64,000 bases of DNA from Octopus vulgaris (GCA_951406725.2 OX597814.1:74648001-74712000); one strand, 5' to 3'; numbered from the stretch's first letter, positions 20,164-48,279 are shown. The notes: generated by a model from the letters alone, not told the origin. Numbers and translations: made by a program.

Positions 20164-23100
20164 GATTTCTTTTATTGGCCACACAGGGTCCAACACGGAG
20201 GAGACATTACAAGGACAGACAAGCGAATATGCACAGTGTGATTACAATGAAAATGACAAATATAATGAAATCGGATGGGTATTTAAAAATTTTACAGAAA
20301 TCGTTAAAAATTAAAAATTCCTATTGTGTATATACATCACCGGGTTAAGCCACCGCTGTTATCCGACGTATCCTTTTGTCGCTGAATGGCTACTCTTAGC
20401 CATTTCCATTCACTCGCAACTTTCTTACGACTGTCGTCCATCTTTTATTAAACGTACTATGCAACAGGTATTTCATCTCTAGCCGGATACTTTGGAGGTG
20501 GTTGTTGAAATAACTAACCAGCCCCTCCGGCCAGAGATGAGGGTACCTGTCGCGAACCCTTTCACACGTGTTCTCAATACCGTCTCTTTCAGTATGGCCA
20601 CTACGCAGAGAAAAGAAGCCCTCCTCTCTCTGTTCAGGGAGGAGGGTAGAACAATCTTAAATAATAGATTCAGCTGATAGCTGTACTCTTTCTGTCGTTG
20701 ATAACAGCTGTTCGATATAGGTTGTCAATTCCCTAATTTTCGCACACTGTACGAAGGCATGCAGGACAGTTTCACTGTCCCACCCGTATCTCAAACAGGT
20801 CGGTGGGATGGCACAACTGTGCCTTGACAACCTCTCTCGAACAGGTAAGGCTGATTGGTAACACAACTAGGTCAGGGATTTCTGGTAATTATCCAGATAC
20901 CCCGACCCGAACGTTTTTTCGATCTGGTTGGTTAACTGATTTCTATCGAAGCCCAGAGTCTCCTCCAGGGCATTCTCTGACATGAACTTACCCTCTATAG
21001 AAGTCCGCGGTGGAACCCCAGCTGCCGCGGTATTGCCCGCCCGGGAAAGTAGCGTGAGTGCCTGTCAGCACTCTAGCTGTCAATCACCCAGTCTGGGTCT
21101 CTGCTTGATCCAAGGACTTAACTCCCGGAGGGAGGTCAGTTGCGGTAAGAAAAACTTCACGAGCGGTGACCACACTTGCTCACTATCCAGGTTGAGCTAG
21201 ATGTACCTAAGCCTTAGCGCAAACTTGTGCATCTTCAACCATGGCATCCCTAGCCCACCCTTTAACGGTTTTTGGCAGCAGATATAGAGCGCCGTACAAG
21301 TGGTGTCCCTCTCCACAAAAAGCGGAAGAGGAAACGCTCCAACTTGCTCAGGCCCAAATCGGGCAAGGTACGATGGTCAGGCGGTAGGTGATAACGTCCT
21401 TCCAAACCAAATCTGGGTGAGGACAGTCACCTTACTTGTGACCTCACTCCAATTCTTCTCTACCTGGAGTTCCGGACCAAACCAGACCTCTAGCATCTTA
21501 AGCGGACCTTCCGTCAAACGTCCCACGGCGTTATTGGACGGCATCGACTTACCCCCTCCAGGTGTCGAGTTGCAAGCCGACTAACTTATCCTGGTTAATT
21601 TTTGCTACTGCCACTGTTTCGTATCTTCTGATGGCGTTTTCTTGACAAAGTAGCTGCCGGTCATCCGACACGATGATGGTGATGGTGGTGTCATCCAAAT
21701 GCGCGGTCGCAGTTCTTCCACAGTTTAGATCACGCGAAATGCCCCCTAAAGTCTCCAACATTCGCAGCAATGGCTCAAGAGCCAACACATACAAAAGCGG
21801 AGACAGGGGACATCCCTGGCGAAGAGAGCGCTTAATGTCGAACGGTTTCGAAAAGAAACCGCCCACTCGGACGATAGACTCGATGTTGCACTACAGAGCA
21901 GCGATCTAGCCGCGGAATGTTGGGCCCAGCCCGCCCACCCGAGAACCGCCGCCAGGTACCGATGTCAGCCCTATCGAATGCTTTAGACTGGTCTAAATGT
22001 ACCAGTGCCCCACCTTTGCCAGAAATTTTAACCACCCGCTCTAAGGTGTGGTGTATGAGGTGGAGATTGTCGCGTATCGTACTGCTGGAGGTGGCACACG
22101 TTTGTGTTTCCCCAACAAGGCTACCCACGACCCGCGCCAATCTCTTTGCTAGCACCTTGGCCAAAATCTTTAACTCTGTGTTTAACAGATTAATGGGCCT
22201 AAAGTTACTAATAATGTTACCCTTTTTAGGGTCCTTTCTGATCAGCGTCATCCCACACCGGCTCACATCCTTTGAAATTCTCCCATTCTGCTGCTAGTTG
22301 GAATAAACGCTGGCCAGTAGGTGCCCGAACAAGTCTGGCATATTTTTGAAAAACTCATAGGGCAGACCATCAAATCCCGGCGACTTTTCCCGGGGGCACT
22401 TGGACAGTACCTCCATGACTTCCTTAGCCGTGATCGGTCCTTCGCAAACTCAGCCTCTTGTGCCGAGACACGCGGGCCACCACCCAGGAGTCCTGAAGGG
22501 GCTCACCATTGTCCAGTGCCTCACTCCTCCCGAACAACTCGGCAAAGTGCTTGTAAAAGACCTCACACATCTTGTCCTTGATCAAACACTCCTGTTCATT
22601 GACTAAAGACCCAATTGCAGTATTATTGCCGTTCTGGGTCTCTACAGTGTGGGCTCACCCGGCAACAACGATTTTCTCGCTGCCTAACTCTACATCCCAC
22701 GTGTTTGGCTTTAAGGAGTTGCTCCAATGCCGATCTCTCTGTCAAAGCTTGGGATGCAGAGCCCAACCGTAATGCCTCTTCTAAGTCCTTGACTAGATCC
22801 CTTTCTACTCTAGTCTTATCTGAACTTAGCTTCTGGCTAAATCTAATCGACTCAAATCGAATGGCTCGTTTGAGGGCAAACCACCACATGTTATTCAACA
22901 TGGTGCCGGTTAATGCCCTCAGGACTAACTCCTTAACCCGACTACGGTATGCCTCACAAGACAAAATAGTCATTTTAGCTTCCAGTAGCCAGATCCCTGT
23001 CTATATACTGTATCTATGTTCATCCTACACGTCACTAGCTTGTGATCCGTGTAGGAGACCAGAACAAACTGTGGACAATTAAAGCTAGACCTATCTCTAG

Positions 23101-23331
23101 TACGAACTATTATTCTATCTAAATAAGACCTGAACAGCCCGTCGCCATTACTCCTGGTCCACGCTGGGACGCTCGGGTGATCAAGTCTGTAACGATCTCC
23201 CAGCTAAAACCGCTTAAGCAGATCGATGAGGCGTAAGTTTTCTTCCTATTAACTGAGCCAACACAATCCTGGTGTGCATTCAGGATAGCGTGTAAAATCT
23301 CATAACATCACTAATGTCTTCGATGTCACAC
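20164..23331 (-). mobile_element. 5'-truncated, decayed Tx1/L1-clade LINE (ORF2 pseudogene), paralog of the element at 36577-41824
   Basis: Minus-strand fragments NFRPINLLNTELKILAKVLAKRL, LDQSKAFDR, RQGCPLSPLLYVLALEPLL and WWFALKRAIRFESIR; 3' tail tgtctcctccgtgttggaccctgtgtggccaataaaagaaatc; candidate TSD tattgttaaacgctt (20149-20163) / tattactaaacgctt (23332-23346). Confidence 0.93.
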
Positions 23332-25981: not shown

Positions 25982-26890
25982 TAAATAAAAGAGATTAAAA
26001 TTCGTGCTGTATCCTCAGGAAGTACTTCTGCAAATACTTGTTATCAAATGTCTATCTGTAAATGGTTTATCTTCAAGAAGCAAACTATGCAGAGAATCTG
26101 AAATTCTGCGTCAAGTATAATGGTTGCTGAGTATATCAAAAACTGGAATTCATGGTGTTATCTTTAATTCTGTAATTGCAATTATTTCAATAGAACGTGA
26201 GAAATCCATTTTATGAGCATAAATATCCCCGTTAATATCAATATAATAAATTCATAATCTTTATATATATATAAAACTGAGAATGTGTGTCTGTCTGTCT
26301 GCCTGTCTGTGTGTTTCCCTAAAACTTGAGAACTACACAACTAATTTCATTCAAATTTTACAGATGCCTTACTTATGGTCCGGGGAGTGTCATCGGCAAA
26401 ACAATTAACTTTTTGCCTAGGGCGAACCAACAGCAATATCATATCTTCTCCACTACGATTCCCTAAACTCGAGAACTACACAACCAATTTCATTCAAATT
26501 TTACACATGCCTTACTTAGGGTCCATGTAATTTCATGGGCAAAAAAATGTTCAACTTCTTGCCTAGAGCGAGCCCATTGCAATATCATATCTTCTCCACT
26601 ATTTCAGTATTACGTGTTAAAAGTGAAACAAAAACATTTCTCTATTTTATGTCAGATACTTTCACTTTAACAATAAAAATAATAACAATTGAATTATATG
26701 TAGTAAGTAATAATTAAAATCAAACTAAAGTATAATAAACTCGTAACATAAAAAAAGTAAAAATAGCAATTGGCATAAAATTGCATCAATGACTTGAACT
26801 TGAATAAGTGGTTTCACATGAATGGGAATAAATCAAAAATAAAATTAGCGTGCAGAAATGGAATAGTCCAGATGGATAATAAAAAATTAA

Positions 26891-26942
26891 ATTAAAGAAA
26901 AGACTATTGTCTATAAAGTATACAATGTAGAGGAAAAAAGGT
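26891..26942 (+). pseudogene. Left half of the decayed LINE ORF1 fragment (insertion target)
   Basis: Translates IKEKTIVYKVYNVEEKR, aligning with KRTITYRTWCVESKK, KRTISYRVFANERKR and NRRIIYKTFSITNRA in the neighbouring ORF1s. Confidence 0.65.
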
Positions 26943-28728
26943 TGCGTTTTTTTCGGCTCCCGTGTTTTTTTGAGTTAGTTAGTTAGAGTTATTCTGGTGT
27001 GTTTATTCTGGTGTGTTTATTTCGAGTAAAGAGGTTGTGAGTTCGAGTTCGTTGGAGGACGTGGAAAAATTTTTTCTTGAAAATGCAAGAGCAGACTTAC
27101 GCGCGAGCGGCAGGCAGAGGCCTGGTTGCCGGTGAACTGGAAATGGAGGAGGTGATGGTCGAACAGAAGACTTTACAGAAGTATTTCGACAGTTTAAAGA
27201 GGGAGGGTGACTGTGTGATAGTCACACCGTCCGAGGAGGAGGAAAGCAGTGCAGAGAAGCGTACTATAACGTACAGGACGTGGTGCGTGGAGTCGAAGAA
27301 GATTGAAGTAGCGGAAATGGAAGAAGTGGAAAGGTGTCTGAAGGAAATTGAGGGTGAACCAGCATTTTTTAAAAGAGGAAGGAAGTATGCCACGGTAGTG
27401 GTGTATTTTAAAACAGAAGAGGAGGCAAAAAAGAACGCTACAAGAATTTTGAAATCGGATAAGTGGACTTTGCTACCAAGTTACTGCGGAAGGAGAGCAG
27501 TGAGGATGAGAATCAATAGAATCTCACCCGAATTTAATATGGAAAGGTTGCTGGCAGCAGTGCTGTTTAACTGCAAGGATGATGTGGAGGTACTGAAGGT
27601 GGAGAAGTCAGCAGAGGTGAAGTGGTGGGGATATACGGCACACATAACCGTGCGAGACCTGTACAACATCCCGGAGGAGTTGGTCTACCCTGACGAAACA
27701 CGGCTCCGAGTTGTGGTAGAGGGAAGACCCCCAATTTGCTATAACTGTAAATCGAGGGGCCACATGAAGGATGTGTGCCCGCGAGAAAAAACAAAAGCAC
27801 CAGAGGTTGTGATAGAGGAGTGTAAAGAAGCGTGTGTGGAGGAAGCGAAAGCGGAGGAAACACAAATGGAGGAGCAGTTAAATGAGGAAGAACGAGCAAG
27901 TGCAGAAGAGGAAAAAACAGAAGACAAGAAGAGATCAAGGGTGGAATCACCACCGAAAGATATAAAAAAGAAAAAAATCAAAAGCAAGATAGCAGAAGAG
28001 AGAGAAGAGAAAAAAGAACAGGAAGTAAAAGAAAAGGTGAGAGAGCGACCAAGGACAGAGTTTGAACAAGAATGGGAGACAAGAGTGAACGAACAATTGG
28101 AATCGTGTAAATATGGAAGAAGGCCTACAGGAAAAAACTTGAAGGCAGTTGTGATGTATATCAAGAATACAGAAGTGGAAAAGAGACTTGTAGGTAAGAA
28201 AGGGTTGGTCAGGGTGAAGGTGAACCCAAAACTGTATGGTGAAGATGTAAAAGGCGTCATTATAGACAAGGAGACATACACAAAATTAAAAAAGATATAT
28301 CATGCTATGCATATAATGCATTATGTACGGTATGATAAATTACCAGATGTAATAGATCAAACGGACCTATTGGATTATATGACGGACGAGTGTCTAATGT
28401 AAAAGAATTAGAATTGTTACTTGTAAAATTATTTGATGTAAAGTTGTGTTTTTGAACAGGAATATATGTAATGTTAACATGTAAAATTGTAAAATTATTG
28501 TACTGTGAACTGGAATATATGTAACTGTAAAATTGTATTTTGAACTGGAATATATGAAATGTATAATTGTATTTTAAACGGAACTGCGAGTTGGGGGTTC
28601 GTAAGCCGTTCCATCTCATTACATATAAATTCATCTTTTACTTCATATTTTATTTTTACTTTATGTACCCCATGTCCCGTCTTGTAATGTCCCCCTCTTC
28701 GTGGCCCCTTGTGGGTAATAAAAAAATC
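26943..28728 (+). mobile_element. ORF1-only retroelement, unit A
   Basis: Starts gcgtttttttcggctc; single ORF; ends tgtccccctcttcgtggccccttgtgggtaataaaaaaatc. Confidence 0.85.
27083..28402 (+). CDS. LINE ORF1p-like protein (RRM-like region, CCHC zinc knuckle, charged linker), 439 aa from the first ATG
   Basis: Open frame; VEGRPPICYNCKSRGHMKDVC (CX2CX4HX4C); LLPSY.GRR motif shared with ORF1 of the autonomous LINE. Confidence 0.88.
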   Translation: MQEQTYARAAGRGLVAGELEMEEVMVEQKTLQKYFDSLKREGDCVIVTPSEEEESSAEKRTITYRTWCVESKKIEVAEMEEVERCLKEIEGEPAFFKRGRKYATVVVYFKTEEEAKKNATRILKSDKWTLLPSYCGRRAVRMRINRISPEFNMERLLAAVLFNCKDDVEVLKVEKSAEVKWWGYTAHITVRDLYNIPEELVYPDETRLRVVVEGRPPICYNCKSRGHMKDVCPREKTKAPEVVIEECKEACVEEAKAEETQMEEQLNEEERASAEEEKTEDKKRSRVESPPKDIKKKKIKSKIAEEREEKKEQEVKEKVRERPRTEFEQEWETRVNEQLESCKYGRRPTGKNLKAVVMYIKNTEVEKRLVGKKGLVRVKVNPKLYGEDVKGVIIDKETYTKLKKIYHAMHIMHYVRYDKLPDVIDQTDLLDYMTDECLM

Positions 28729-30403
28729 GCGTTTTTTTCGGCTCTGTGTTTTTTGCTCTCTGTGGAATTCGGTAAAAAGAAAAAAGAACAAAAAGTGAAT
28801 GGTTGTTGTTGTAAAATTTTGAACATAGTTGATGCGGTTTCGCGTCTCACTGGTTCTGCGCGTTACACTTTTTCGGTTCGGGAGGCCGTTTCTCGGCCGG
28901 AGGCGACTATGAGCCGCCTCCATCAAGCGGAGGAGATGGAAGGGAGATTTTACTCTGAAATTTCGACGGAAGTATCGACATCTGAGGAGGAGTTGGCGGT
29001 GAAAAAGATGGAAGGCACCTACGCAGGTGTAACGAAGAAGTCAACGGAAAGAGAGATAGACTTGGCTAAGTTGGCGGGCCTCCAGGAGTTTGTGAAGGAG
29101 GACGAGAACGGTGAAGTCGAGCTGCTGCATCCAGTAGGGCGCGGAGACTGGTTCCATCGTAGAACCATTAAATATAAAGTATTTATGAATGGAGGTAGAA
29201 AGATGGAAGTAATCAACATGGAAGCAATTGAAGAGGCTCTCAAGCAGACAGGAGAGGAAATTGTGTACATGACAAAAGGATTACAATACGGAACGATAAC
29301 GGTGCAATTTAAAAGCGAAAAAGCAGCCAGGAATGTAGCAGCCAAGGTGGTGAGTACAGAAAAGATTTACTTGTTACCCTCGTATCTGAATAGGCGGACA
29401 ACTAGAATTAGGGTGGAGGGAATACCTCCACACCTAGAGGGCGAATTAATAACGGCTGCGGTTATAAAAGGAAATGAAGATAAAGTGGACATCCTCCACG
29501 CCATTATGAAGTATGAAGGCGTGAGAGGTGCCACACTAGTTATGAACATTCAAGCGGAGGCGGATGTTATAGAGAGGATTACGGACAGCATAAAAACTGG
29601 AAATATTATTATGAGAGTGTGGGTGGAGGGTAGGGCGCCCAGGTGCTACAAGTGTGGCCAAAGGGGTCACATAAGAGCCTACTGCCCTCCCCCACCAAAG
29701 GAAAAAGAAAAGGAAAGCGTTGAGGAAGCCTCGGGAGAGGAAGAAAATAAACAGAAACAAACAGAGAAGGAAACGACAGAAGAAGAGGAGATGCAACAAG
29801 AGTGGAAAGAAGCGGGAACAAAGAGAAAAAGAAGGAAAAAGAAAAACTGTGCGAAGCCCCAACCCACCCCGACACCACCCATACCCTTGGAGTCCCATCC
29901 TTCCCCTGCAAACAGTAATTCCACCCACTCCCCGCCTACAAGAAAAATAAAAACAGACACACAGAGCAAAGAAAGTCCCAAGACCCATTTTTTATGTGTT
30001 ATACATGGGAAAGACATACAAAACGTTAAAAAACTGGTGTTAACCAAGTGGTACGAACACGAAGATTGGAGCTACACGGCTGTGGATAGTGATGATACGG
30101 GTATATTGGCGACAAGGTTAGAGGAAGAGGGTGTGTGTTGGAAGTCAGTGGAAATGAAAGATGAATGGATAGAGAGGGCTAAAAGAAAAACGAATGTTGT
30201 GATAGGTGAAACAGGAATACTAATTGGAAATGGGTGAAGAAGGACAGACAAGTGATGCTGGCGGATGGGGCCGTCGGTATCACTCTCATATATCATTTTT
30301 CATATTCCATTTTGCTCATATATATGTAATTGTGATGTTCCATGTCCCCATGTCTTGTAATGTCCCCCTCTTCGTTGGCCCCTTGTGGGTAATAAAGAAT
30401 CAT
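28729..30403 (+). mobile_element. ORF1-only retroelement, unit B
   Basis: Same 5' gcgtttttttcggctc and 3' ggccccttgtgggtaataaagaatc termini. Confidence 0.85.
28909..30237 (+). CDS. LINE ORF1p-like zinc-knuckle protein, ~442 aa
   Basis: First ATG inside the unit at 28909 (the ORF track's 28567 start runs through the previous unit's tail); VEGRAPRCYKCGQRGHIRAYC. Confidence 0.87.
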   Translation: MSRLHQAEEMEGRFYSEISTEVSTSEEELAVKKMEGTYAGVTKKSTEREIDLAKLAGLQEFVKEDENGEVELLHPVGRGDWFHRRTIKYKVFMNGGRKMEVINMEAIEEALKQTGEEIVYMTKGLQYGTITVQFKSEKAARNVAAKVVSTEKIYLLPSYLNRRTTRIRVEGIPPHLEGELITAAVIKGNEDKVDILHAIMKYEGVRGATLVMNIQAEADVIERITDSIKTGNIIMRVWVEGRAPRCYKCGQRGHIRAYCPPPPKEKEKESVEEASGEEENKQKQTEKETTEEEEMQQEWKEAGTKRKRRKKKNCAKPQPTPTPPIPLESHPSPANSNSTHSPPTRKIKTDTQSKESPKTHFLCVIHGKDIQNVKKLVLTKWYEHEDWSYTAVDSDDTGILATRLEEEGVCWKSVEMKDEWIERAKRKTNVVIGETGILIGNG

Positions 30404-32138
30404 GCGTTTTTTCGGCTCCTGAAAATTCGGTAAAAAAGAACAAAAAGCGTTGTTGTTGTTGTGGAAATTCTGAACGGCGTTGACGCGGTTTCGCGTTTCG
30501 CTCGTTCAGCGCGTTACACTTTTTCTGTTTTGGCGGCCGTTCTCGGTCTGTCAGACAGAAGGAAATGGACTATGAGTCTCTAACAGACTTGTCCACGACA
30601 GATGAGGAACTGGAACAGGCAATTGCAATGAAGCTGATGGAAGAAAAGGCTGGAATTTTCGAGTCTTTATCAGACCTGCCTACGTCTGAGAAAGAGCTAG
30701 AAATGGCAGCAAGGAATTTGGAAGAGAAGCTGGGTTATACCTATGCCGGTGTAACCAAGAAGGCGGAAGAGAAAGGGGTAGACATGGCCAAGTTGCCAAG
30801 TTACCAGAAATACATGAAAAAGGAAAGCGGTGAGGTGGAACTATCACCGACACCCAGGAGAAAAGAATGGTATGATAAGAGGACCATTAGTTACAGGGTG
30901 TTCGCAAACGAAAGGAAGAGGGCAGAAGTTGTAACCATGGAATGGATAGAGGAGGCCCTGCGAAGAACTGAGGAGGAAATAAATTTTCTGACTCGAGGAT
31001 CCAAGTACGGTACCGTAGTTGTGCATTTCAAAACTGAGTCTGCAGCGAGGAAGATGGCGGCGAAGCCGGTGAAGTCAGAAAAGGTAACCCTATTACCTAC
31101 GTATTTAAACAGGAGGATTACACGAATAAGGGTGGAGGGAGTGCCACCAAACGTGGAGGCAGAATGGATTGTGGCGGCTGTGATCAGCGGCCACGAGGAC
31201 GAAGTGGATATTCTCCATGCCTCGGTTAAGTCCGAGGGCTGGAGAGGCGTAACGGTGGAGCTGAACGTACAGGCAGAGACCGAGGTACTGGTGGACCTGA
31301 CGGAAAGCATCAGACTGGGAGACGTGATCATGAGAGTGTGGGTGGAGGGCAGGGCTCCACGTTGTTACAAGTGTGGCCTGAGGGGTCACATAAGAGCCTT
31401 CTGCCCTCCCCCAGGGAAAGAAATGGATTCCGAACCAGAGAGAGAGAAGCAGAAACCAGAGGAGAAGGAAACAGAGGAAGAGAATACACAGAAATGGAAG
31501 GAAGTTGGAAGTAAGAGGAAGAGAAGAATACGTGGAAAAAAAGAAAATAATATGGAACTCCAATCTCCCCAAAACCTCCCACACCCTCTGAGTCCCACCC
31601 TATCCATGCAGACATTGAACCCACCCGCTCCCCACCAACAAGAAAACAAAAGAAAAAAAAGAATACACACACACAAGAGATTGAAATCGAACCCAGGCCG
31701 TACATTTGTACTATGACTGAACAGAGGGAAGTTAAAAGTCTAATGGAAGAGTATAAACGGTATGATGTTGGAGAGACTAGGTATGCTGTGATTGAAAAAA
31801 AGAACATAGGTGAGTTTATGGGGAGGTGTGAAAAGGAAAATTGGGAGGTGAAAGATATAAGAATGAGCGATGAATTCGTGGAAAATATGAATGAGTATTT
31901 CGGAGTAAGAATGGATATGGAATTTATTCATATTGGCAAAGAACATTCAAGTGACTATGAAAAACAAAGGACAGGTAAGTGATGCTGACGGACGGGGCCG
32001 TTGGTATCGCTTTCATTTTATCATTTTTTTTTCGTTTAACAATTCATGTTCATAAAGTTTAATTATAATGTTCTATGTCCCCATGTTTTGTGATGTCCGC
32101 CATTCTTCGTAGCCCCTTAGTGGGTAATAAAGAAATAC
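30404..32138 (+). mobile_element. ORF1-only retroelement, unit C
   Basis: Same termini; near-identical to unit E. Confidence 0.87.
30565..31982 (+). CDS. LINE ORF1p-like zinc-knuckle protein with frameshift(s) near 31565-31640 (ORFs 30565-31716 and 31713-31982 are one gene)
   Basis: CYKCGLRGHIRAFC; comparison with B and E shows the frame should continue STPKPPTPSESHP...YICTMTEQ...QRTGK*; the indels lie in or next to C/A runs. Confidence 0.8.
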
Positions 32139-34819
32139 GCGTTTTTTTGCGCTCTGTAAAATTCGGTAAAAAAGAACAAAAAGCGTTGTTGTTGTTGTGG
32201 AAATTCTGAACGGCGTTGATGCGGTATCGCGTTTCGCTCGTTCTGCGCGTTACACTTTTTCTGTTTTGGCGGCCGTTTTCGGTCTGTCAGACAGAAGGAA
32301 ATGGACTATGAGTCTCTAACAGACTTGTCCACGACAGATGAGGAACTGGAACAGGCAATTACAATGAAGCTGATGGAAGAAAAGGCTGGAGTTTTCGAGT
32401 CTTTATCAGACTTGTCTACGTCTGAGAAGGAGCTAGAAATGGCAGCAAGGAAATTGGAAGAGAAGCTGGGATATACCTACGCCGGTGTAACCAAGAAGGC
32501 GGAAGAGAAAGGGGTCGACATGGCCAAGCTGCCAAGTTACCAGAAATACATGAAAAAGGAAAGCGGTGAGGTGGAACTATCACCGACACCCAGGAGAAAA
32601 GAATGGTATGATAAGAGGACCATTGTTTACAGGGTGTTCGCAAACGAAAGGAAGAGGGTAGAAGTTGTAACCATGGAATGGATAGAGGAAGCCCTGAGAA
32701 GAACTGAGGAGGAAATAAATTTTCTGACTCGAGGATCCAAGTACGGTACCGTTGTGGTACATTTTAAAAGTGAATCTGCAGCGAGGAAGATGGCGGCGAA
32801 GGCGGTGAAGTCAGAAAAGGTAACACTGTTACCTACGTATTTAAACAGGAGGATTACACGAATAAGGGTGGAGGGAGTGCCACCAAACGTGGAGGCAGAG
32901 TGGATTGTGGCGGCTGTGATCAGCGGCCACGAGGTGATTTTTTATTACCCACTAAGGGGCGACACAGAGGGGGACAACAAAAGACATGGGGACATAGAAC
33001 ATTATAATTAAACTTTATGAACATGTATTGTTAAACGAAAAAAAATGATAAAATGAAAGCGATACCAACGGCCCCGTCCGTCAGCATCACTTACCTGTCC
33101 TTTGTTTTTCATAGTCACTTGAATGTTCTTTGCCAATACGAATAAATTCCATATCCATTCTTACTCCGAAATACTCATTCATATTTTCCACGAATTCATC
33201 GCTCATTCTTATATCTTTCACCTCCCAATTCTCCCTTTCACACCTCCCCATAAACTCACCTATGTTCTTCTTTTCAATCACAGCATACCTAGTCTCTCCA
33301 ACATCATACCATTTATACTCTTCCATTAGACTTTTAACTTCCTCTGTTCAGTCATAGTACAAATGTACGGCCTGGGTTCGATTTCAATCTCTTGTGTGTG
33401 TGTATTCTTTTTTTTCTTTTGTTTTCTTGTTGGGGGGAGCGGGTGGGTTCAATGTCTGCATGGATAGGGTGGGACTCAGAGGGTGTGGGAGGTTTTGGGG
33501 TAGATTGGAGTTCCATATTATTTTCTTTTTTCCACATATTCTTCTCTTCCTCTTACTTCCAGCTTCCTTCCATTTCTGTGTATTCTCTTCCTCTGTTTCC
33601 TTCTCCTCTGGTTTCTGCTTCTCTCTCTCTGGTTCGGGATCCATTTCTTTCCCTGGGGAGGGCAGAAGGCTCTTATGTGACCCCTCAGGCCACACTTGTA
33701 ACAACGTGGAGCCCTGCCCTCCACCCACACTCTCATGATCACTTCTCCCAGTCTGATGCTTTCCGTCAGGTCCACCAGTACCTCGGTCTCTGCCTGTACG
33801 TTCAGCTCCACTGTTACGCCTCTCCAGCCCTCGGACTTAACCGAGGCATGGAGAATATCCACTTCGTCCTCGTGGCCGAAGTGGATATTCTCCATGCCTC
33901 GGTTAAGTCCGAGGGCTGGAGAGGCGTAACAGTGGAGCTGAACGTACAGGCAGAGACCGAGGTACTGGTGGACCTGACGGAAAGCATCAGACTGGGAGAA
34001 GTGATCATGAGAGTGTGGGTGGAGGGCAGGGCTCCACGTTGTTACAAGTGTGGCCTGAGGGGTCACATAAGAGCCTTCTGCCCTCCCCCAGGGAAAGAAA
34101 TGGATTCCGAACCACAGAGAGAGAAGCAGAAACCAGAGGAGAAGGAGACAGTAGAAGAGGAAGAGAATACACAGAAATGGAAGGAAGTTGGAAATAAGAG
34201 GAAGAGAAGAATGCGAGAAAAAAAAAAGAAAATAACATGGAACACCAATCTACCCCAAAACCACCCACACCCTCTGAGTCCCACCCTATCCATGCAGACA
34301 TTGAACCCACCCGCTCCCCCCAACAAGAAAACAAAAGAAAAAAGAGAATACATACAGACAAGAGATTGAAGTTGATATCAGGCCGTACATTTGTACTATG
34401 ACTGAACAGAAAGAAGTTAAAAGTCTAATGGAAGAGTATAAATGGTATGAAGTTGGTGAGACTAGGTATGCTGTGATTGAAAAGAAGAACATAGGTGAGT
34501 TTATGGGGAGGTGTGAAAGGGAGAATTGGGAGGTGAAAGATATAAGAATGAGCGATGAATTCGTGGAAAATATGGATGAGTATTTCGGAGTAAGAATGGA
34601 TATGGAATTTATTCGTATTGGCAAAGAACATTCAAGGGACGATGAAAAACAAAGGACAGGTAAGTGATGCTGACGGATGGGGCCGCTGGTATCGCTTTCA
34701 TAATATCATTTTCTTTCACTTAACAATTCATTTTTCATAAATTTTAATTATAATGTTCTATGTCCCCATGTCTTTTGGTGTCCCCCTCTGTGTCGCCCCT
34801 AGTGGGTAATAAAGAAATA
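32139..34819 (+). mobile_element. ORF1-only unit D: forward 5' part (32139-32934), inverted 3' half (32935-33877), forward 3' half (33878-34819)
   Basis: ORF 32301 breaks at ...VISGHE into tgatttttttattacccactaagggg (reverse-complement tail); palindrome centre ccacttcg-tcctcgtggc-cgaagtgg. Confidence 0.9.
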
Positions 34820-34850
34820 CTATAAAGTATACAATGTAGAGAAAAAAGGT
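34820..34850 (+). repeat. Right copy of the 31-32 bp target-site duplication (left copy 26911-26942)
   Basis: ctataaagtatacaatgtagag(g)aaaaaaggt at both positions, differing by a single G indel. Confidence 0.9.
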
Positions 34851-36564
34851 CGTGTTTTTTTCGGCTCCTGAAATTCGGTAAAAAAGAACAAAAAGCGTTG
34901 TTGTTGTTGTGGAAATTCTGAACGGCGTTGACGCGGTTTCGCGTTTCGCTCGTTCAGCGCGTTACACTTTTTCTGTTTTGGCGGCCGTTCTCGGTCTGTC
35001 AGACAGAAGGAAATGGACTATGAGTCTCTAACAGACTTGTCCACGACAGATGAGGAACTGGAACAGGCAATTGCAATGAAGCTGATGGAAGAAAAGGCTG
35101 GAATTTTCGAGTCTTTATCAGACCTGCCTACGTCTGAGAAAGAGCTAGAAATGGCAGCAAGGAATTTGGAAGAGAAGCTGGGTTATACCTATGCCGGTGT
35201 AACCAAGAAGGCGGAAGAGAAAGGGGTAGACATGGCCAAGTTGCCAAGTTACCAGAAATACATGAAAAAGGAAAGCGGTGAGGTGGAACTATCACCGACA
35301 CCCAGGAGAAAAGAATGGTATGATAAGAGGACCATTAGTTACAGGGTGTTCGCAAACGAAAGGAAGAGGGCAGAAGTTGTAACCATGGAATGGATAGAGG
35401 AGGCCCTGCGAAGAACTGAGGAGGAAATAAATTTTCTGACTCGAGGATCCAAGTACGGTACCGTAGTTGTGCATTTCAAAACTGAGTCTGCAGCGAGGAA
35501 GATGGCGGCGAAGCCGGTGAAGTCAGAAAAGGTAACCCTATTACCTACGTATTTAAACAGGAGGATTACACGAATAAGGGTGGAGGGAGTGCCACCAAAC
35601 GTGGAGGCAGAATGGATTGTGGCGGCTGTGATCAGCGGCCACGAGGACGAAGTGGATATTCTCCATGCCTCGGTTAAGTCCGAGGGCTGGAGAGGCGTAA
35701 CAGTGGAGCTGAACGTACAGGCAGAGACCGAGGTACTGGTGGACCTGACGGAAAGCATCAGACTGGGAGACGTGATCATGAGAGTGTGGGTGGAGGGCAG
35801 GGCTCCACGTTGTTACAAGTGTGGCCTGAGGGGTCACATAAGAGCCTTCTGCCCTCCCCCAGGGAAAGAAATGGATTCCGAACCAGAGGAGAAGGAAACA
35901 GAGGAAGAGAATACACAGAAATGGAAGGAAGTTGGAAGTAAGAGGAAGAGAAGAATACGTGGAAAAAAAGAAAATAATATGGAACTCCAATCTACCCCAA
36001 AACCACCCACACCCTCTGAGTCCCACCCTATCCATGCAGACATTGAGCCCACCCGCTCCCCCCCCAACAAGAAAACAAAAGAAAAAAAAGAATACACACA
36101 CACAAGAGATTGAAAGCGAACCCAGGCCGTACATTTGTACTATGACTGAACAGAAAGAAGTTAAAAGTCTAATGGAAGAGTATAAATGGTATGATGTTGG
36201 AGAGACTAGGTATGCTGTGATTGAAAAGAAGAACATAGGTGAGTTTATGGGGAGGTGGGAAAGGGAGAATTGGGAGGTGAAAGATATAAGAATGAGCGAT
36301 GAATTCGTGGAAAATATGGATGAGTATTTCGGAGTAAGAATGGATATGGAATTTATTCGTGTTGGCAAAGAACATTCAAGTGACTATGAAAAACAAAGGA
36401 CAAGTAAGTGATGCTGACGGACGGGGCCGTTGGTATCGCTTTCATTTTATCATTTTTTTCGTTTAACAATTCATGTTCATAAAGTTTAATTATAATGTTC
36501 TATGTCCCCATGTTTTGTTATGTCCGCCATTCTTCGTAGCCCCTTAGTGGGTAATAAAGAAATC
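34851..36564 (+). mobile_element. ORF1-only retroelement, unit E
   Basis: Same termini; ORF1 matches unit C over the N-terminal ~290 aa, with a 21-bp deletion (REKQKPE). Confidence 0.87.
35013..36411 (+). CDS. LINE ORF1p-like zinc-knuckle protein, frameshifted in a poly-C run at ~36058-36065
   Basis: ORFs 35013-36113 and 35932-36411 join at the homopolymer; this may be a sequencing error or a real indel. Confidence 0.8.
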
Positions 36565-36795
36565 ACATGGAGGAAATCAATTTTTTGCGTTAGTAGTAAG
36601 TTGATATATATTTTTGCTCTCATACTACTTATCTCTGTTATTATATACTGTTGGTCTACCTTTTTTTGTCCATTGTTGTCGAACTGACGAAGTCAACCTT
36701 CGCGCGAAGACTTCGCGTTGGTGTTCCCCCCTCAGTGGGGGAAAACTACAATTAATTTAGATTTACCAAAGGCTTGTTAAAGCCATTTGTTCAAG

Positions 36796-38173
36796 ATGGA
36801 GTCCCCCATCACTTATTCGCCCGTGACGAGCGAGGATGAATACCCGGCGTTGTCGCCAAGTAAAAAAGAGGCGTTGTCGCCAAGAAAAAAGGGCGCTGTC
36901 GCCGAAGAAAAAAGAGGCGGCGTCGCCCAAGAAAATGGAAAAATCAGTACCAGCATCAACTCCAGCAAAAAAATTCGCTGAAGTGGCTGGGAAGAAAATT
37001 AAAAAAATTAACGTGGACAACCTGGGAAAACATGCGGACTGTGTGTCAAAAGAGGGCACGGAAGTAACCGTGGCTTCAAACGCCCAAATACAGGAGGATA
37101 TTTCGAATAGGAGAATAATCTATAAGACATTCAGTATAACAAACAGAGCAATCCAAAAAATAGAGGAGAAAAAGATTGAAAACTGCTTAAAGCCAATAAT
37201 GGATAAAATTACGTATATCAATCGAGGGAAGAAATACGGCACAGTGGAGGTGAGATTCACGTCAGAGGAGGTAGCGAAGAAGCTATCCATGGAACCCATA
37301 AAAGCGGAGGATATTGTTCTCCTACCCCTGTATAAAGGCAAGAGAACTTCCAAGATCACAATGAACAACATCCCGCCAGAAGCGGATGCCGAAGTCCTAG
37401 TGGCAGCAGTTATGGTAGGCCTGGAGGAAAAAATAAACATCCTCCAGGCCACCGTAGAAGAAGAAGAATTCTGGAAAGGGCAAAAGATAATAATAGCCAT
37501 ACGAGCAGAAGTACAAACCCTGGAAGAGATCCCAGAGACTCTAAGGATAAGCGAAGATGAAAGAGTCACAGTCTTCGTAGAGGGCAGAAAGCCGAGGTGC
37601 TTCGGCTGCGGTAAGAAGGGGCATGTAAGGGCGGAATGCCAGCCCCAACCCAAACCGCAGGAAGCACCTAAGCCAAAAGAAAAAGAAGACAATGTGTCAC
37701 CAGAAGCAGCGTCAGACGGCCCAGAAGGGAAGACTGAAGGTGTGGAGGTGATGGTAACAGCAGAACCAGCGGCGGAGAAAAAAAAGAGCGAGGAAAAGAT
37801 AAATGAGGAGGGGTGGGCAAAAATTATCGGAAAAAAAAAAAGAAAAACGGAAACCACCCCTCCCAGAGTAATTTTAAAAAAGAAAAAAGAGTCAATGAAC
37901 TCATATATGGCCGTAAAAGCATCAAATAGCAGACTCGGAAACGTGTTGGCAGCCATGGCCAAAGTGAAGAAAGTAGAGAAAAAAAATGACTTTGTAATTT
38001 ACAAAATAGACCGGAAGGATTACGGGCGGATAAAGTCAGAATTCTTCCATGACGTAGGCCCACTTAGGTTGGATGTAACATCTCCACATATATTCGAGGG
38101 CCTACGTCAGACTCCCCCACGAGGCCCAGAAAAAGAGAAGGAAGAAGAAGAAAAAACCGAACCACTGATATAA
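36796..38173 (+). CDS. ORF1p (gag-like, CCHC zinc knuckle); probable true start 36796 with a frameshift in a 24-bp repeat at ~36890
   Basis: MESPITYSPVTSEDEYPALSPSKKEALSPRKK joins ALSPKKKEAASPKKMEK...; VEGRKPRCFGCGKKGHVRAEC. Confidence 0.88.
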
Positions 38174-38182
38174 AGGTAAGTA

Positions 38183-41100
38183 ATGGATTACATTTATGTT
38201 GGTTGTTTAAATGTGCGCGGCCTGGGAGCAGGCTGGAAGCAAGGTCGCTTCCTGCATGATATCAGGTCGCGTAATTTAGATGTTATTGTTGCTACAGAAA
38301 CCCGGTTAGAGGGGCCAAGAGGTCTACTCCCGCTGTTTGACGGCTACGAGAGTTTTTTCTCTCCTGGCAGTCCTACAGGCGGGAGTGGGGTGTTGGTCCT
38401 ATTAAAAAGAAACCGGGTTTCTGAGAAAAAGTTAATTTTTGCAGATCCAGAAGGTAGGCTGGTCGTCATGGATTTGACGTTCAGTAATGGTAAAGTTATC
38501 AGACTGGTTGCAATTTACGCACCCAACCATACAGGGCAAAGTGATTATTTTCGTGAACTAGAAAACTTTCTTGGTACTTCGCATTCATTAGTGGTGCTAG
38601 GAGACTTTAACACAATTTGCAAAGCGGATGTAGATTATGTTGGCTCGTGTCCAGATAGAAAAGGCAACAGTGGCTTCATGGAACTGCTAAGCCGCTTTGA
38701 GCTAGCAGATCCTTATAGGCTGGAATTTCCGAACGCTCCATTGTGGACATGGTCAAACAGCGACGGATCTTCCAGGTCATATCTAGATAGAATACTAATT
38801 AGAAAAGTAGACAGTAAAATAGCTAAGTGTCCACAGTTTTACCCGATCAGCTACAGTGATCATAAAATGGTCACTTGTAAGCTTGACATAGATAAGGTTA
38901 AAAATAGAGGATCCGGTTACTGGAAACTTAATACGTCCCTTTTGGCGATTAAGGAGTACAAAGACCGGATTAGGAATATAATTCAGAGGGCACTATCTGG
39001 TACCATCATTAATAACAAATGGTGGTACGCCCTCAAACGAGCCATCAAGTTTGAGTCTATTAGATATAGCATAGGAGTAGTGGCTAGAGAGGCTAGAAGG
39101 GAAACTACTCTAGTTAAGGAATTAGAGGAAGCCATGAAAACTGGCTCTGCGGCTCAGGTGGCGGCCAAGAGACTGGTGTTAAACCAGCACCTCGAGGCCA
39201 AACACATGGGCTGCATTGTCAGGGCTAGAATCCGTCATATGGGATGTGAAGGAATCAACGCCGTGAGATGGGCCCGAGTGGTGGAAGCTCAGCATGGTAA
39301 CGATGCCACGATTCGATCTTTGACGAACCAACAAGGTGAGTTGATAAACGAACCCGAGGAGATGTGTGAGGCCTTTCAGGAGCACTTCGCTCAGCTTTTC
39401 GGTGAGTGCGGCGGACTGGATAGGAGGAGGGCCTTTACGGACCTACTCGACGGTCTGCCGCGCTTATCGGGGCGAGATGCGGAGGGCTGTGAAGGGCCAA
39501 TCACGCCTGAGGAGGTGGTTGAGGCAATGGCGGACTGCGGCGCGGGCAAGGCGCCGGGTTTGGATGGTCTACCCTATGAGTTATATAAGAGTATGCCAGA
39601 CTTGTTCGGGCACCTACTGGCGGAGGTCTACGCGAACTGGCAGCAGAACGGGCTTATACCCAGATCTGTGCGCCGGGGAGTAGTGACTCTCGTCAGAAAG
39701 GACCCGAGCAAGGGGGAGTGCATTGATAATTTCAGGCCCATCACTCTGCTAAACACAGAGTTGAAGATTTTGGCCAAAGTGTTATCGAAAAGATTGGCGC
39801 GTGTCGCGGATGGTCTGATCGGAGGGGCACAGACATGTGCCGTTCCGGGCAGATCCATTCAGGATAATCTCCATCTAATGCGGTACACTATAGAGGGGTT
39901 TAATAGTGATTCTGGCAAGGGTGGGGCACTGGTCCATTTAGACCAATCTAAAGCTTTTGATAGGGTCGACCATCGTTACCTGGTATCTGCCCTGGCACAG
40001 TTCGGGCTGAGCCTTGGATTCCTCAGGTGGATTATCGAAATTTATGATAACATCGACTCGGTAGTTCGGGTGAACGGCTTCTTGTCGAAGCCGTTCAAAA
40101 TCAAACGCTCGGTTCGTCAAGGGTGTCCGCTCTCCCCGCTTTTGTACGTGATGGCTCTTGAGCCATTACTGCGAAAACTGAGCGGCATCCCGAGACAGCC
40201 AGGTAATGGAAAATCAGTGTCAGCGTACGCGGATGACATCACCATCATCGTAACCGAAATGGACCACCTATGTAAAGTAGGCAAGGCCATAGAGGTGTAC
40301 GAGACGGTGACAGGAGCAAAAGTTAATCGCGAAAAGTCAGTCGGCTTGCAACTCGGCACCTGGAGAGGCAAGTCGATGCCTCCTGACAGCGTCGTGGGAC
40401 GTTGGACGGAGGGTCCGATTAAACTGCTAGGGGTCTGGTTCGGTCCAGACCTCCAAATAGAGAAGAATTGGGGCGAGGTAACGAGCAAGGTGGCTGCAGT
40501 AGCCAAGACCTGGTCTTGGCGGTGGCTATCCCTGAAAGGGAGGGCGGAGGTGGCCAATGTGTTTATCGCATCGGTTATCACCTACCGCCTTTCCGTCGTT
40601 CCTTGCCCTGATTCGTGGTTGATCAAGTTGGAAAGACAGCTCTTCTACTTCTTGTGGAAGGGCGGGAAACCACTTGTGAAACGCTCTACTTGCTGTCAAC
40701 AACCGTTAAAGGGTGGGCTAGGGATGCCTTGGCTGATGATGCGCAGACATGCGCTGAGGTTAAGACATCTGTGGCTCTACCTGGATGGTGAACGGGTGTG
40801 GTCTTCGCTAGCAAAACTGATGTTTCCCAAGTTCACTAGTTTCGGTGGATGGGAAACCTGGCTGAATCGTAGATCGAAACTTGGTACTTGGTACACGGAG
40901 TGTCGCAAGGCTCTCCTGCTATTCCGTCGCTCGGGCAACGCCTGCGGTGGGGGTTCCACCACATTCTTCTATAGAGGGTTGGTAGAGGCGGAATGTGAAG
41001 ATACCTTGGGGGAAACCCTAGGTCTCGACGATAATCAGCTGGCCAGTCTGTTCCGACGTACGTTCGAGCCAAGGACACTGGACAACTTCCAGAAGTCTCT

Positions 41101-41578
41101 GGCATGGCAATGCTACAGAGGAGCTCTACCTGTTCGGGATAAACTCGCAAGGCACGGTGGCCAAGACAGTCCGATATGTCCAAGATGCGGGCGGGATAGG
41201 GAAACCGTCCCGCACGCGATTGTTCATTGTCCGGACGTGTCTGAGGTGTGGGTTTATGCCGAACACCTGTTGTCAGGTACACGAAGAGTACAGCTGTCGA
41301 CTGAGTCGATTACAAAAATTGACCCACCGGATTTCCTCGTGAATGAAGGTAAGTTTCGTTTTCTCGTTGTAGTAGCAATCGCGAAAGAGGTGATATGGAA
41401 GACGAGAATGAAAGGTTTACAGTCAGGCAAGTTCATCTCCGGCCCTGGTTTGATGAATTATTTCATCTTTCACCTGAAAAGGAAGATAGGGCTGGAGAGA
41501 ATATGCCTGACTAGGAGAGCGTATGAAGAACGATGGAAGGATGTAGCACGGAAGTTGCGAATGAAAGTTACAACATAA
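38183..41578 (+). CDS. ORF2p: APE endonuclease, reverse transcriptase and C-terminal zinc finger (1131 aa, intact)
   Basis: EN motifs NVRGL, TET, IYAP, GDFN, YLD, SDH; RT motifs PGLDG, FRPITLLN, LDQSKAFDRV, RQGCPLSP, YADD; GGLG; CPRC...H...C; GYWKLN linker typical of L1/Tx1. Confidence 0.97.
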   Translation: MDYIYVGCLNVRGLGAGWKQGRFLHDIRSRNLDVIVATETRLEGPRGLLPLFDGYESFFSPGSPTGGSGVLVLLKRNRVSEKKLIFADPEGRLVVMDLTFSNGKVIRLVAIYAPNHTGQSDYFRELENFLGTSHSLVVLGDFNTICKADVDYVGSCPDRKGNSGFMELLSRFELADPYRLEFPNAPLWTWSNSDGSSRSYLDRILIRKVDSKIAKCPQFYPISYSDHKMVTCKLDIDKVKNRGSGYWKLNTSLLAIKEYKDRIRNIIQRALSGTIINNKWWYALKRAIKFESIRYSIGVVAREARRETTLVKELEEAMKTGSAAQVAAKRLVLNQHLEAKHMGCIVRARIRHMGCEGINAVRWARVVEAQHGNDATIRSLTNQQGELINEPEEMCEAFQEHFAQLFGECGGLDRRRAFTDLLDGLPRLSGRDAEGCEGPITPEEVVEAMADCGAGKAPGLDGLPYELYKSMPDLFGHLLAEVYANWQQNGLIPRSVRRGVVTLVRKDPSKGECIDNFRPITLLNTELKILAKVLSKRLARVADGLIGGAQTCAVPGRSIQDNLHLMRYTIEGFNSDSGKGGALVHLDQSKAFDRVDHRYLVSALAQFGLSLGFLRWIIEIYDNIDSVVRVNGFLSKPFKIKRSVRQGCPLSPLLYVMALEPLLRKLSGIPRQPGNGKSVSAYADDITIIVTEMDHLCKVGKAIEVYETVTGAKVNREKSVGLQLGTWRGKSMPPDSVVGRWTEGPIKLLGVWFGPDLQIEKNWGEVTSKVAAVAKTWSWRWLSLKGRAEVANVFIASVITYRLSVVPCPDSWLIKLERQLFYFLWKGGKPLVKRSTCCQQPLKGGLGMPWLMMRRHALRLRHLWLYLDGERVWSSLAKLMFPKFTSFGGWETWLNRRSKLGTWYTECRKALLLFRRSGNACGGGSTTFFYRGLVEAECEDTLGETLGLDDNQLASLFRRTFEPRTLDNFQKSLAWQCYRGALPVRDKLARHGGQDSPICPRCGRDRETVPHAIVHCPDVSEVWVYAEHLLSGTRRVQLSTESITKIDPPDFLVNEGKFRFLVVVAIAKEVIWKTRMKGLQSGKFISGPGLMNYFIFHLKRKIGLERICLTRRAYEERWKDVARKLRMKVTT

Positions 41579-41824
41579 ATGTAATACCAAGTGCAACCAA
41601 AAGTATCAGTGGGGAGGCGGGGCTCGTGGGGTCCGAGCTAAACCCGCACCCACTCCACCCGTAATGTCTTCCGGTCTGTCCTATCACTCGATTTCTGTCC
41701 ATTTATTGTTATTCATGAAAATTTTTAAACCCGATTTATTGTAAAAACCCATTCGTTTGTCTGACCCCATCATCAGATTGTATTGTCCCATCTGTGTTCG
41801 CCCCTTGTGGGTAATAATAAAACA

Positions 41825-42145
41825 ACATGGAGGAAAGCACCTTCGAAAAGTGTCTTGGTGCGACTATGAAAGTTATCTAATCAGAGGCGGTAAACTCGCC
41901 ACAATAGAAGCAAGGTTCGAGTCAACGGAGCGTGCAAAGGAGTACTCGACTCGAACTTGTAAAGTGGAAATATTCTATTTCTACCTTTATATCTGGGACG
42001 TAGGACGTCCCGGAAAAAATTTAAAATGCCCCCCCCCCCCCCCGAAGTAGAGGTAGGTTGGATTGTAGCCACACTTCTATACAAGAGGGAGGACAAGATA
42101 CAATTGATCGAAATTACAAGAGACGGGCTAACAATTCCAGTCTGT
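41825..42145 (+). pseudogene. Right half of the decayed LINE ORF1 fragment (insertion target)
   Basis: Frameshifted MEESTFEKCL / SYLIRGGKLATIEARFESTERAKEYS / FLPLYLGRRTSR / PEVEVGWIVATLLYKREDKIQLIEI, collinear with the ORF1s of units A-F. Confidence 0.85.
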
Positions 42146-42589
42146 TATATATTTTGAGTATTGTTATCACTAGCGATATCAAGATATAACTTTGTATTTT
42201 GTATTTTATGTGTAGATGTATATACATAGATGTACATGTAATATGTACACATATATATACACATATATACATGCACTAGCACTATGACCCGGCAACGACG
42301 GGTCTTTAATGCTAGTATTATAATAACTATACATACATGGGTACTTACAACATGGATACTTACAAAATGTGTGTGAGCGTATATATGTATGTATGTATAA
42401 TATTTTAAGACTCCATTACTCAAATTCCATTCACAAAGCTTCAAAACTGTATTTATAGAAAATTAAATTGCATAAATATTACAAGCCGACCGTATTCTCA
42501 TTCCCTACCAATAACCTACACTTGCATATGCGGGAGTGGATCAGTTAGTGCATTTATGCATAATTTTTTCCGTTATTCCATTTTTAATA

Positions 42590-43524: not shown

Positions 43525-44326
43525 GGATCGTTACCTTTTGACCGACAAATTTAAAAAATAATTTTTTGTAACTAAACACTTTCAAACTGCGAACACTGGT
43601 AGAATGTGTCATACAAAACATGTTTTACTCGCAGAATTTTTGAGAAAAACTTATATTTACGAAGTTATTTCACGTTTAAGTTCTCGTATTTCGGTAATTT
43701 CAACCAATGACGTGTATTCAGTTGAATAAAATTACTGCCGTTGTTTGTCAACAACAACTGTCGGTGGTGTATTTTTCGTTTGTCACTGTTATTTATGACA
43801 TCGTTCGTGCGTTTGTACTGGTTTTAAGGTTTTGGGTTAGGGTTAGGGTTAGGGTTTTAGGGTTAGGGTTAGGGGTAGGGTTTTAGGTTTTAGGGTTAGG
43901 GTGTTAGGGTTAGGGTTTTAGGGTTAGGGTTAGGGTTAGGGTTTTAGGTTTTAGGGTTAGGGTGTTAGGTTAGGGTTTTAGGGTTAGGGTTAGGGTTATA
44001 AGGTCAGGGTTAGGGTTTTAGGGTAAGGGTTAGGGTTAGGGTTTTAGGGTTAGGGTTGTCATAAATAACAGTGACAAACGAAAAATACACCGCCAGAAGT
44101 TCTTGTTGACAAACAACGGCAGTAATTTTATTCAGCTGAATACACGTTGAAATTACCGAAATTTTACAACTTTAACGTGGAATAACTTCGTAAATATATG
44201 TTTTTCTCAAAAATGCTAAGAGTAAAACATGTTTTATATGACACATTCTACCAGTGTCCGAAGTTTGAAAGTGTTTAGTTACAAGAAATTATTTTTTTAA
44301 ATCTATAGGTCAAAAGGTAAAGATCC
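43525..44326. mobile_element. Foldback DNA element with ~275-bp TIRs, GGATC termini, 8-bp TSD and an internal telomeric repeat tract
   Basis: aaaatata|ggatcgttaccttttgacc...tgttatttatgaca / tgtcataaataaca...ggtcaaaaggtaaagatcc|aaaatata. Confidence 0.85.
43820..44057 (+). repeat. Interstitial (TTAGGG)n tract with TTTTAGGG variants
   Basis: Direct reading. Confidence 0.95.
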
Positions 44327-47082: not shown

Positions 47083-48279
47083 TAGGGTGTCCCCCCAAAA
47101 ATGTATATACACTTTAAATAATTGTAAAGTAGGTGTTTATTGAAATACATTTGATTTTCAAATTTTAATAGACTCTACATATATTATTTTATTGTTTTGT
47201 AAACGCCTTTTTTCTAACTGACGTTCGTTCTGGTCCAGTGGTCCAGACACAGCTGACAATGCGAAGCAATGGAATCGCAAACATCACGAAGCAATTTGTT
47301 TGCTATTTGTGTGCATTCTTGTTCAATGGCGTCTCTCAAATCAGCGACTGTTGCAGGTTTCATAGCATAGACTTTCTTTTAGGTATCCCCATAAAAACAG
47401 TCTAGTGGTGTGAGGTCTGATGAACGCGGAGGGTATTCAACGAAATCCCTTCGTCCAATCCACTTGTTTGACAAGATCTCATCAAGGAAACGCGATGGTA
47501 GTGTGGGGGTGCCCCATCTTGCTGATAATAACTCCTCATCTTCAGGGTCTTCTCTAATGCTTGGCATGACAGACTGTTGCAGCAAGTTCAAGTAAACGGG
47601 ACTAGTTACAATAGCATCAATAAAGAATGGCCCAATTAATCCTCTTGATGATAAGTCACACCACACTAAATTCTGGTAAATTAACATGGTGCTCCACCTA
47701 ACACGCGGATTCTTAGGTCCCCAGTAGGTGCAATTGTGATGGTTAATTGAACCAAGTTCCATCTGTAGTAAATCCTTCGCTCGATCTGATCATTTAATTA
47801 AAATACTGCACTCTTGGGTCTGAATCATCGTCATTAATAGTATTGACTAATCTTGGAACGTAACTTTTCCATTGAAAACGCTTCAAAATGCGCTGGACCG
47901 ACGATTTTGAAATAACTACCTCACGACTCGCTTGCCGCACAGATTTTCTTGGACTTTGGTGATACGTTTCCAGCACCCCTTCTTGCTTTGTTGGGGTTGT
48001 CGATATTCATGGTCTTGTGGACATTCTGAACAGTTCTATCGGGTTCAAACTTATCTCTAATTCGAGTGATGGTGGATCTGTTTGAAACTACCTTCTAAAC
48101 TGTCATTGCACTTCAACTGCGATTTCACACTTCCAGTAGCATTTTAGAATGAATTTCATGTGTTCAAAGCTTAGTCTGACTGCCATCATTAATTCTAATG
48201 GATTTAATCTGGAAAGTAAAAACATCAATTGAGTTATCAGCTACTAAAATGTGTATATATTTTTGGGAGGGACACCTTG
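47083..48279 (-). mobile_element. Decayed Tc1/mariner-superfamily transposon with TIRs
   Basis: TIRs agggtgtccccccaaaaatgtatatacact / tgtgtatatatttttgggagggacacct; [12 protein letters not shown]...[16 protein letters not shown] and [12 protein letters not shown] motifs. Confidence 0.85.

Follow-up and report, generated by a model that had tools for sequence, protein, structure and literature searches.

Head-to-tail arrays of ORF1-only LINE derivatives inside a Helitron-like repeat of Octopus vulgaris

Introduction

Long interspersed nuclear elements (LINEs) of the Tx1 clade can occupy a preferred site within another transposable element, as do Tx1 in Tx1D of Xenopus and Tx1-Mar and SINEU-3 in Mariner-N4_AMi of crocodilians (PMC4494074). 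Here, we describe a related arrangement in Octopus vulgaris, in which chains of units encoding only the first open reading frame (ORF1) of a LINE lie head to tail inside a repeat that we judge to be Helitron-like. One such chain lies in a 64,000-nucleotide stretch, hereafter the window (GCA_951406725.2, OX597814.1:74648001-74712000), and positions are counted from its first letter. A first-pass annotation of the window had read this chain as four different units under one unique target-site duplication (TSD) of 31-32 bp, laid down by serial template jumping in a single event.

The octopus system resembles the Tx1-clade systems in having a LINE with apurinic/apyrimidinic endonuclease (APE) and reverse transcriptase (RT) domains and a preference for a single site within a non-autonomous DNA transposon, accompanied by non-autonomous passengers and tandem copies (PMC4494074), but its target is Helitron-like and its passengers encode ORF1. 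SINEU-3 tandems sandwich a TSD, whereas most octopus tandem joints are without target DNA (PMC4494074). The half-L1 elements (HAL1) are likewise non-autonomous LINE derivatives that encode only ORF1 and arose more than once (PMC5753468). The octopus units differ from HAL1 in being Tx1-like, site-specific and chained, in belonging to several families, and in having no poly(A) tail. HeT-A, TART and TAHRE of Drosophila belong to a different clade from the octopus elements. They also form same-strand, head-to-tail arrays that mix ORF1-only and autonomous elements without long terminal repeats (non-LTR elements), and flanking sequence may enter the next RNA (PMC5537684). The octopus arrays, however, are interstitial and lie inside a repeat at at least 60 loci, and they are not known to act at telomeres.

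In melanogaster-type R1, annealing of upstream target sequence carried by the RNA produces a precise 9-bp target deletion (PMC2718515), which recalls the octopus founders. Target-deleting R1 types, however, have few tandems, and R1 tandems always keep a TSD (PMC2718515), whereas in the octopus the deleting founders lead arrays that reach 15 units and contain no target DNA. The RT of R2 can jump from one template to another in vitro, and in cells a class of tandem-insertion junctions has been defined (PMC11371274, PMC8857657). In vitro, template jumping by the RTs of non-LTR elements is well documented; one study suggests that it may not be physiologically needed (PMC8857657). The literature that we searched contained no account of these arrays; Repbase and the supplements of one octopus repeat annotation may hold these families. 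The searched text of this annotation reports active L1-Tx1 families and has no match for ORF1, nested or array (PMC13282606). Precedent exists for each ingredient.

Results

The array in the window runs on the plus strand through five ORF1-only units. Unit A (26943..28728) has an ORF of 439 aa with a CCHC knuckle (27083-28402), unit B (28729..30403) an ORF1 read from 28909 to 30237 (442 aa), and unit C (30404..32138) an ORF of 383 aa (30565-31716). Unit D (32139..34819) is a C-family composite, in which a 5' part (32139-32934) and a 3' part (33879-34819) are separated by an inverted, 5'-truncated C-family copy of 944 bp with its own tail (32935..33878, minus strand). Unit E (34851..36564; ORF 35013-36113) is a founder-type member of the C family, and its tail is joined to ACATGG. 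As annotated, the junctions at 28728/9, 30403/4 and 32138/9 pass from tail straight into head, with GGGTAATAA plus 7-8 nt followed directly by GCGTTTTT (0 expected, 100 shuffles). Units C, D and E are 92-98% identical and form a single family, so that A-E comprise three families. The earlier count of four different units is not confirmed, as A-D represent three families, with D as a composite. Unit C is itself a mosaic, with a 5' half like the founder type and a 3' half from a different subfamily. The two arms of unit D also derive from different subfamilies, the inverted arm having 0-2 mismatches against copies in other arrays and about 94% identity to the unit's own 3' arm. Contigs of four public sequencing runs contain the C family and the uninterrupted form of D, although they are short and unable to phase the repeat; none of the listed contigs of these runs spans either inversion joint of D, and such contigs cannot show absence.

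The two sequences taken as a TSD lie where they had been placed, at 26911..26942 (32 nt) and 34820..34850 (31 nt), both on the plus strand, and differ by a single G. The left copy consists of 22 bp of host repeat followed by a unit leader (extra G, A run, GGT), and these 22 nt occur in 1,986 copies in the 2.8-Gb genome (at most 1 mismatch; control 0). The right copy is an internal piece of host sequence with a founder-type leader, ahead of unit E. The length difference arises because an extra G is common at the left junction of multi-unit arrays. Host-derived sequence of the bracket precedes a unit head at 60 places genome-wide, a pattern that the first-pass annotation had itself regarded as contrary to its reading. 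Nor does the array end at 34850, since unit E and a LINE (F) follow and the host resumes at 41825. Because the bracket is multicopy, recurs at 60 unit heads, and is outrun by an array extending to E and F, the argument from a single TSD fails.

The two halves of the host repeat flank the whole array, the left at 26258..26932 (plus strand; 5' TC after A, ending in GTAGAG) and the right at 41825..42315 (plus strand; 3' hairpin at 42286-42304, CTAG before T). The empty repeat is about 1.2 kb long, its 3' hairpin scores z -2.6, and 28 of the first 30 copies examined have no insertion at the target site. Its 5' TC, its 3' hairpin with CTAG, and its insertion point between A and T are features that we take to fit the signature of non-autonomous Helitrons, and judged by these ends the host repeat is probably a non-autonomous Helitron-like element.

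Exact junctions were collected across the genome, comprising 143 tail-head (100 listed), 60 host-head, and 108 tail-target junctions (100 listed). The array set drawn from these lists, in which intact junctions are favored, consists of 69 loci, 63 of them anchored in the left half of the host. As the first-pass annotation had suggested checking, unit number and order vary, from 1 to 15 units among the 63 host-anchored loci and with 29 different orders among the 34 arrays of at least three units. Single-unit loci number 23 (one interrupted by an assembly gap) and attest independent mobility. The arrays are strictly polar, in that the ORF1-only unit closest to ACATGG is of B2 type in 37 cases and of C type in 23, but never A (0/19) or B (0/38). 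The young A copies found number 16; each has its full length and lies within an array, and none is 3'-most. The arrays sit within host repeats at internal positions of many contigs, not at chromosome ends. Units A, B and C of the window each match copies elsewhere with 0 private changes. At C2:138.7 Mb, one array-private change is common to all 14 units, with similar cases at C8:9.6 Mb and C4:70.0 Mb, and long runs of uniform units probably underwent amplification or homogenisation at a later stage.

Among 250 tails, 130 lead into a head without its first GGT, 60 into ACATGG, 22 into a host segment plus full head, and 2 into a full head alone. The remaining 36, at 21 loci, are abnormal and lead mostly into shortened heads, 5'-truncated units, or a foreign leader; these joints often show 2-5 nt of microhomology by eye, and one foreign leader is joined at the identical base to two different tails at two loci. 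At C10:55.3 Mb, the left junction bears a tail-derived leader. At four older single-unit sites, GGT proves to be the 5' end of the element itself, and the host there had formerly been nearly intact. Young single-unit sites share a left junction with 8-11 bp of target missing whatever the host variant, and the same left junction is present in 17 of the 23 single-unit sites despite variation among empty hosts at that position. A test of whether long leaders had converted the left flank revealed no gradient across 18 empty and 59 occupied flanks. Double heads were considered as fresh TSDs and rejected by eye, as the first motif mismatches the head of the next unit in the cases inspected. In many arrays the 4-nt head tag varies (CGCG, CGTG, TGCG, CACG, CATG, TACG), consistent with CpG decay.

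The units are 1.7-1.8 kb long and contain a single ORF homologous to ORF1 of the autonomous LINE, without ORF2; unit B matches LINE F ORF1 at 35% over 251 aa (E 4e-42). The shared terminal motif CCCC..GTGGGTAATAA ends all units and LINE F, mostly without poly(A), and the 3' tails fold no better than shuffles. Given the ORF1 homology and the shared motif, we classify units A-E, from sequence, as HAL1-like, non-autonomous elements of a Tx1-like LINE. The closest partner of their ORF1 is the local Tx1-like ORF1 of F and of a second LINE (H), not mammalian L1, and a protein search with unit B ORF1 gave no match at E 0.001. The ORF1-only families are 25-35% alike in protein, and the zinc knuckle is invariant across the ORF1 alignments. 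A model of the F ORF1 core from a 12-sequence alignment (pLDDT 87) matched tandem RNA recognition motif (RRM) proteins in Foldseek with E of about 2e-5 and low TM, and a wide structural search gave a best Z of 8.7 with RRM and ACT-like folds tied. The predicted core resembles tandem RRM proteins and closes with a CCHC knuckle. Values of dN/dS over about 180 codons were 0.014/0.187 between A and older A, 0.029/0.246 between B and B2, and 0.271/2.8 between B and C, which show purifying selection on ORF1 between ORF1-only lineages. An ORF of at least 420 aa is retained in 8/19 A, 42/81 B and 42/136 C copies, many young copies having shorter frames.

Older relatives of A form tandem runs with target-like heads at a different repeated target (e.g., C4:27.05-27.07 Mb and C4:97.90 Mb), and the difference between older and young A is a target switch within one ORF1-only family. 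An abundant element at six loci ends in the same terminal GGGTAATAAAGAAATA, followed by GGTA, and is possibly a short interspersed nuclear element (SINE) using the same machinery.

LINE F (36577..41824, plus strand) is an intact two-ORF element (ORF1 36836-38173; ORF2 38183-41578), preceded by the 12-bp duplication ACATGGAGGAAA (36565..36576, plus strand), the second copy of which lies at 41825-41836. Its ORF2 has the Pfam domains Exo_endo_phos (APE endonuclease), RVT_1 (RT) and a C-terminal zf-RVT. Only 1 of 25 matches in a search was named, a TX1-type protein at 26% identity, and F is called Tx1-like from its domain order, target preference and this named match, not from a tree. The preference is for one multicopy target, as seen in the 108 exact tail-to-target junctions and 63 host-anchored arrays; copies of H are mostly elsewhere. 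A copy of H with intact ORF1 and ORF2 (C1:108.56 Mb) has the head motif of A-E and a follower position, and is a candidate partner. Two further ORF1-only families, G and G2, also occupy the insertion site of the arrays, with target-like spacers of 12 bp (C3:113.98 Mb, C4:70.04 Mb, and others). F and G elements insert separately from the A-E chain, each with a 12-bp duplication.

Other F-like autonomous LINEs occur in tandem runs outside the host repeat (C10:76.66 Mb and C27:32.96 Mb), where another repeated target recurs at the 3' joints. In the window, 20409-23232 (minus strand) holds a decayed older relative of F ORF2 at 66% identity, with stops and frameshifts. The window also contains an inverted-repeat element (43550-44300) with a degenerate TTAGGG array inside (43820-44055), and segments at 56049-57036 (minus strand) and 47379-47762 that we take, by motif, to be fragments of Tc1/mariner-like transposases.

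Discussion

Homology-guided template switching is, on balance, probably the main builder of the arrays. The serial template jumping proposed at first loses its argument for a single event, which depended on the unique TSD, but the mechanism is favored by the genome-wide data on other grounds. Priming at the host site would come from a founder RNA that reads into ACATGG at its 3' end, and the borrowed LINE RT would switch from one unit's RNA to the next within one integration episode. The unit RNAs would carry a few flanking bases at both ends, as we infer, and new cDNA would pair, through the common head motif, with another RNA's 3' end, which would yield clean tail-head joints without the 5' GGT; alternatively, a switch could follow a stall through 2-5 nt of microhomology. 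Annealing of a cDNA, by a leader that stems from the host, to the left flank would end the chain and remove 8-11 bp of target, and the 31-bp internal copy may be a leader, or a copy of the local host, kept when such a switch took place. If the array of the window arose in one event, the chain likely included unit E. A further-reaching proposal, which we hold only tentatively, is that the arrays reflect chained reverse transcription in vivo, in which one LINE RT would carry many terminally redundant RNAs into one insertion of up to about 25 kb, each array recording the RNA pool of one particle. With the same reserve, such insertions might start and end on Helitron-derived homology, and the ORF1-only elements might form a guild.

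The junctions of a tail with a host segment, like the D-to-host junction of the window, bear directly on this switching. In 12 of 12 cases a unit head follows, and in no case an empty site; the other 8 of the 20 search matches were unrelated, a number equal to the control count of 8. As the host-segment sequence is present in every host copy, independent priming should strike empty copies about 96% of the time; host-site occupancy is about 4%, and on that estimate 12/12 has a p of about 1e-17. Moreover, truncated headless units have further units in front of them, and four loci hold an internal host copy that does not match the flank beside it. The variable unit order speaks for chaining too, as do the 36 abnormal tails, the foreign leader with its two different tails, the tail-derived leader at C10:55.3 Mb, the full-length young A copies that are never 3'-most, and the two subfamilies in the arms of D. 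An age gradient was absent in the 36 arrays of one test (founder older than the leftmost unit in 13, younger in 14, tied in 9) and in the 34 of a second (15/15/4), both of which excluded 9 loci because of gaps, old copies, or ends that could not be resolved. The left junction shared despite variable empty hosts is expected for leader annealing, for which R1 offers a precedent (PMC2718515).

Several observations weigh against chained switching. The 130 of 250 tails that lead into a GGT-less head are not predicted by plain end-to-end jumping and need the homology-switch step. The age test has low power, at about 1 change per unit and with within-array age clustering at p 0.10. The larger number of private changes in lone founders than in array founders (2.9 vs 1.3, p 0.045) runs opposite to accumulation with time and so favors chaining, but the set includes 4 older-type copies. 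Two non-local internal host variants that were searched are absent from the left ends of other arrays and have no source locus in the assembly. The rival is stepwise growth, in which followers would recognise the head of a resident unit, cut the DNA there or close by, and integrate ahead of it, their leader regenerating the left junction. At C14:65.4 Mb and C3:20.0 Mb, internal copies carry the local private variant, for which a later insertion with a TSD is the simplest account; RT copying of the local target could yield it as well. Of 16 copies of a rare host variant, 8 lie at the left end of an array, with differing leftmost units (p 3e-8), which fits hot sites or repeated conversion, and F and G elements duplicate local target variants. 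The strict polarity, with neither A (0/19) nor B (0/38) at the 3' end, also suits stepwise growth, as do the extra G at the left junction of 21/40 multi-unit arrays against 0/23 single-unit sites and the tandems that older A relatives form at another target, where heads are target-like and duplications measure 17-19 bp. Tandem insertion of R1 or SINEU-3 is a precedent (PMC4494074, PMC2718515), and stepwise growth would be an interstitial analogue of it or of HeT-A addition. Stepwise addition is shown for F and G elements and is likely at a few loci. As the general builder it is less likely, as units stand in front of headless truncated units, the age gradient is missing, and the oldest founders are single. 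In addition, the autonomous H shares the head motif, yet only 1 copy lies at a head and 10 others with the tail in view join other sequences, and founder and head sites have little common sequence around the joint.

Retrotransposition of read-through transcripts of existing arrays as multi-unit blocks would account for pairs of neighbours that recur, for instance a B2 founder with a C follower in front of it, and for non-local internal host segments. It is nonetheless improbable, as 34 arrays show 29 orders, the internal variants that were searched lack a matching source array, and every unit has kept a tail of its own. An origin mainly in DNA-level events (unequal exchange, tandem duplication, conversion) is more improbable still: the changes common to all units at C2:138.7 Mb, and the similar ones at C8:9.6 Mb and C4:70.0 Mb, are as it would predict, but mixed arrays join families 25-31% alike in protein by precise tail-head joints, and the window's A, B and C have no private changes relative to copies elsewhere. 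DNA-level events remain insufficient for mixed arrays and a secondary process for uniform runs. The polycistronic element that the first-pass annotation had offered as an alternative is suggested by the ORF1 units standing upstream of a full LINE in the window. The single-unit sites and the variable order refute it, the latter excluding any fixed compound of several ORF1 genes upstream of ORF2; many arrays have no F, and 143 tail-head junctions over many contigs make an assembly artefact, like the compound element, hardly credible.

With at least 60 young natural arrays that have a fixed start site, the role of template jumping is testable from population genomes alone. The system shows ORF1-only LINE parasites maintained under selection, a Helitron-like repeat serving as a safe harbour, and HeT-A-like arrays off telomeres. 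It also has a bearing on multi-cargo insertion by retrotransposon-based genome writing.

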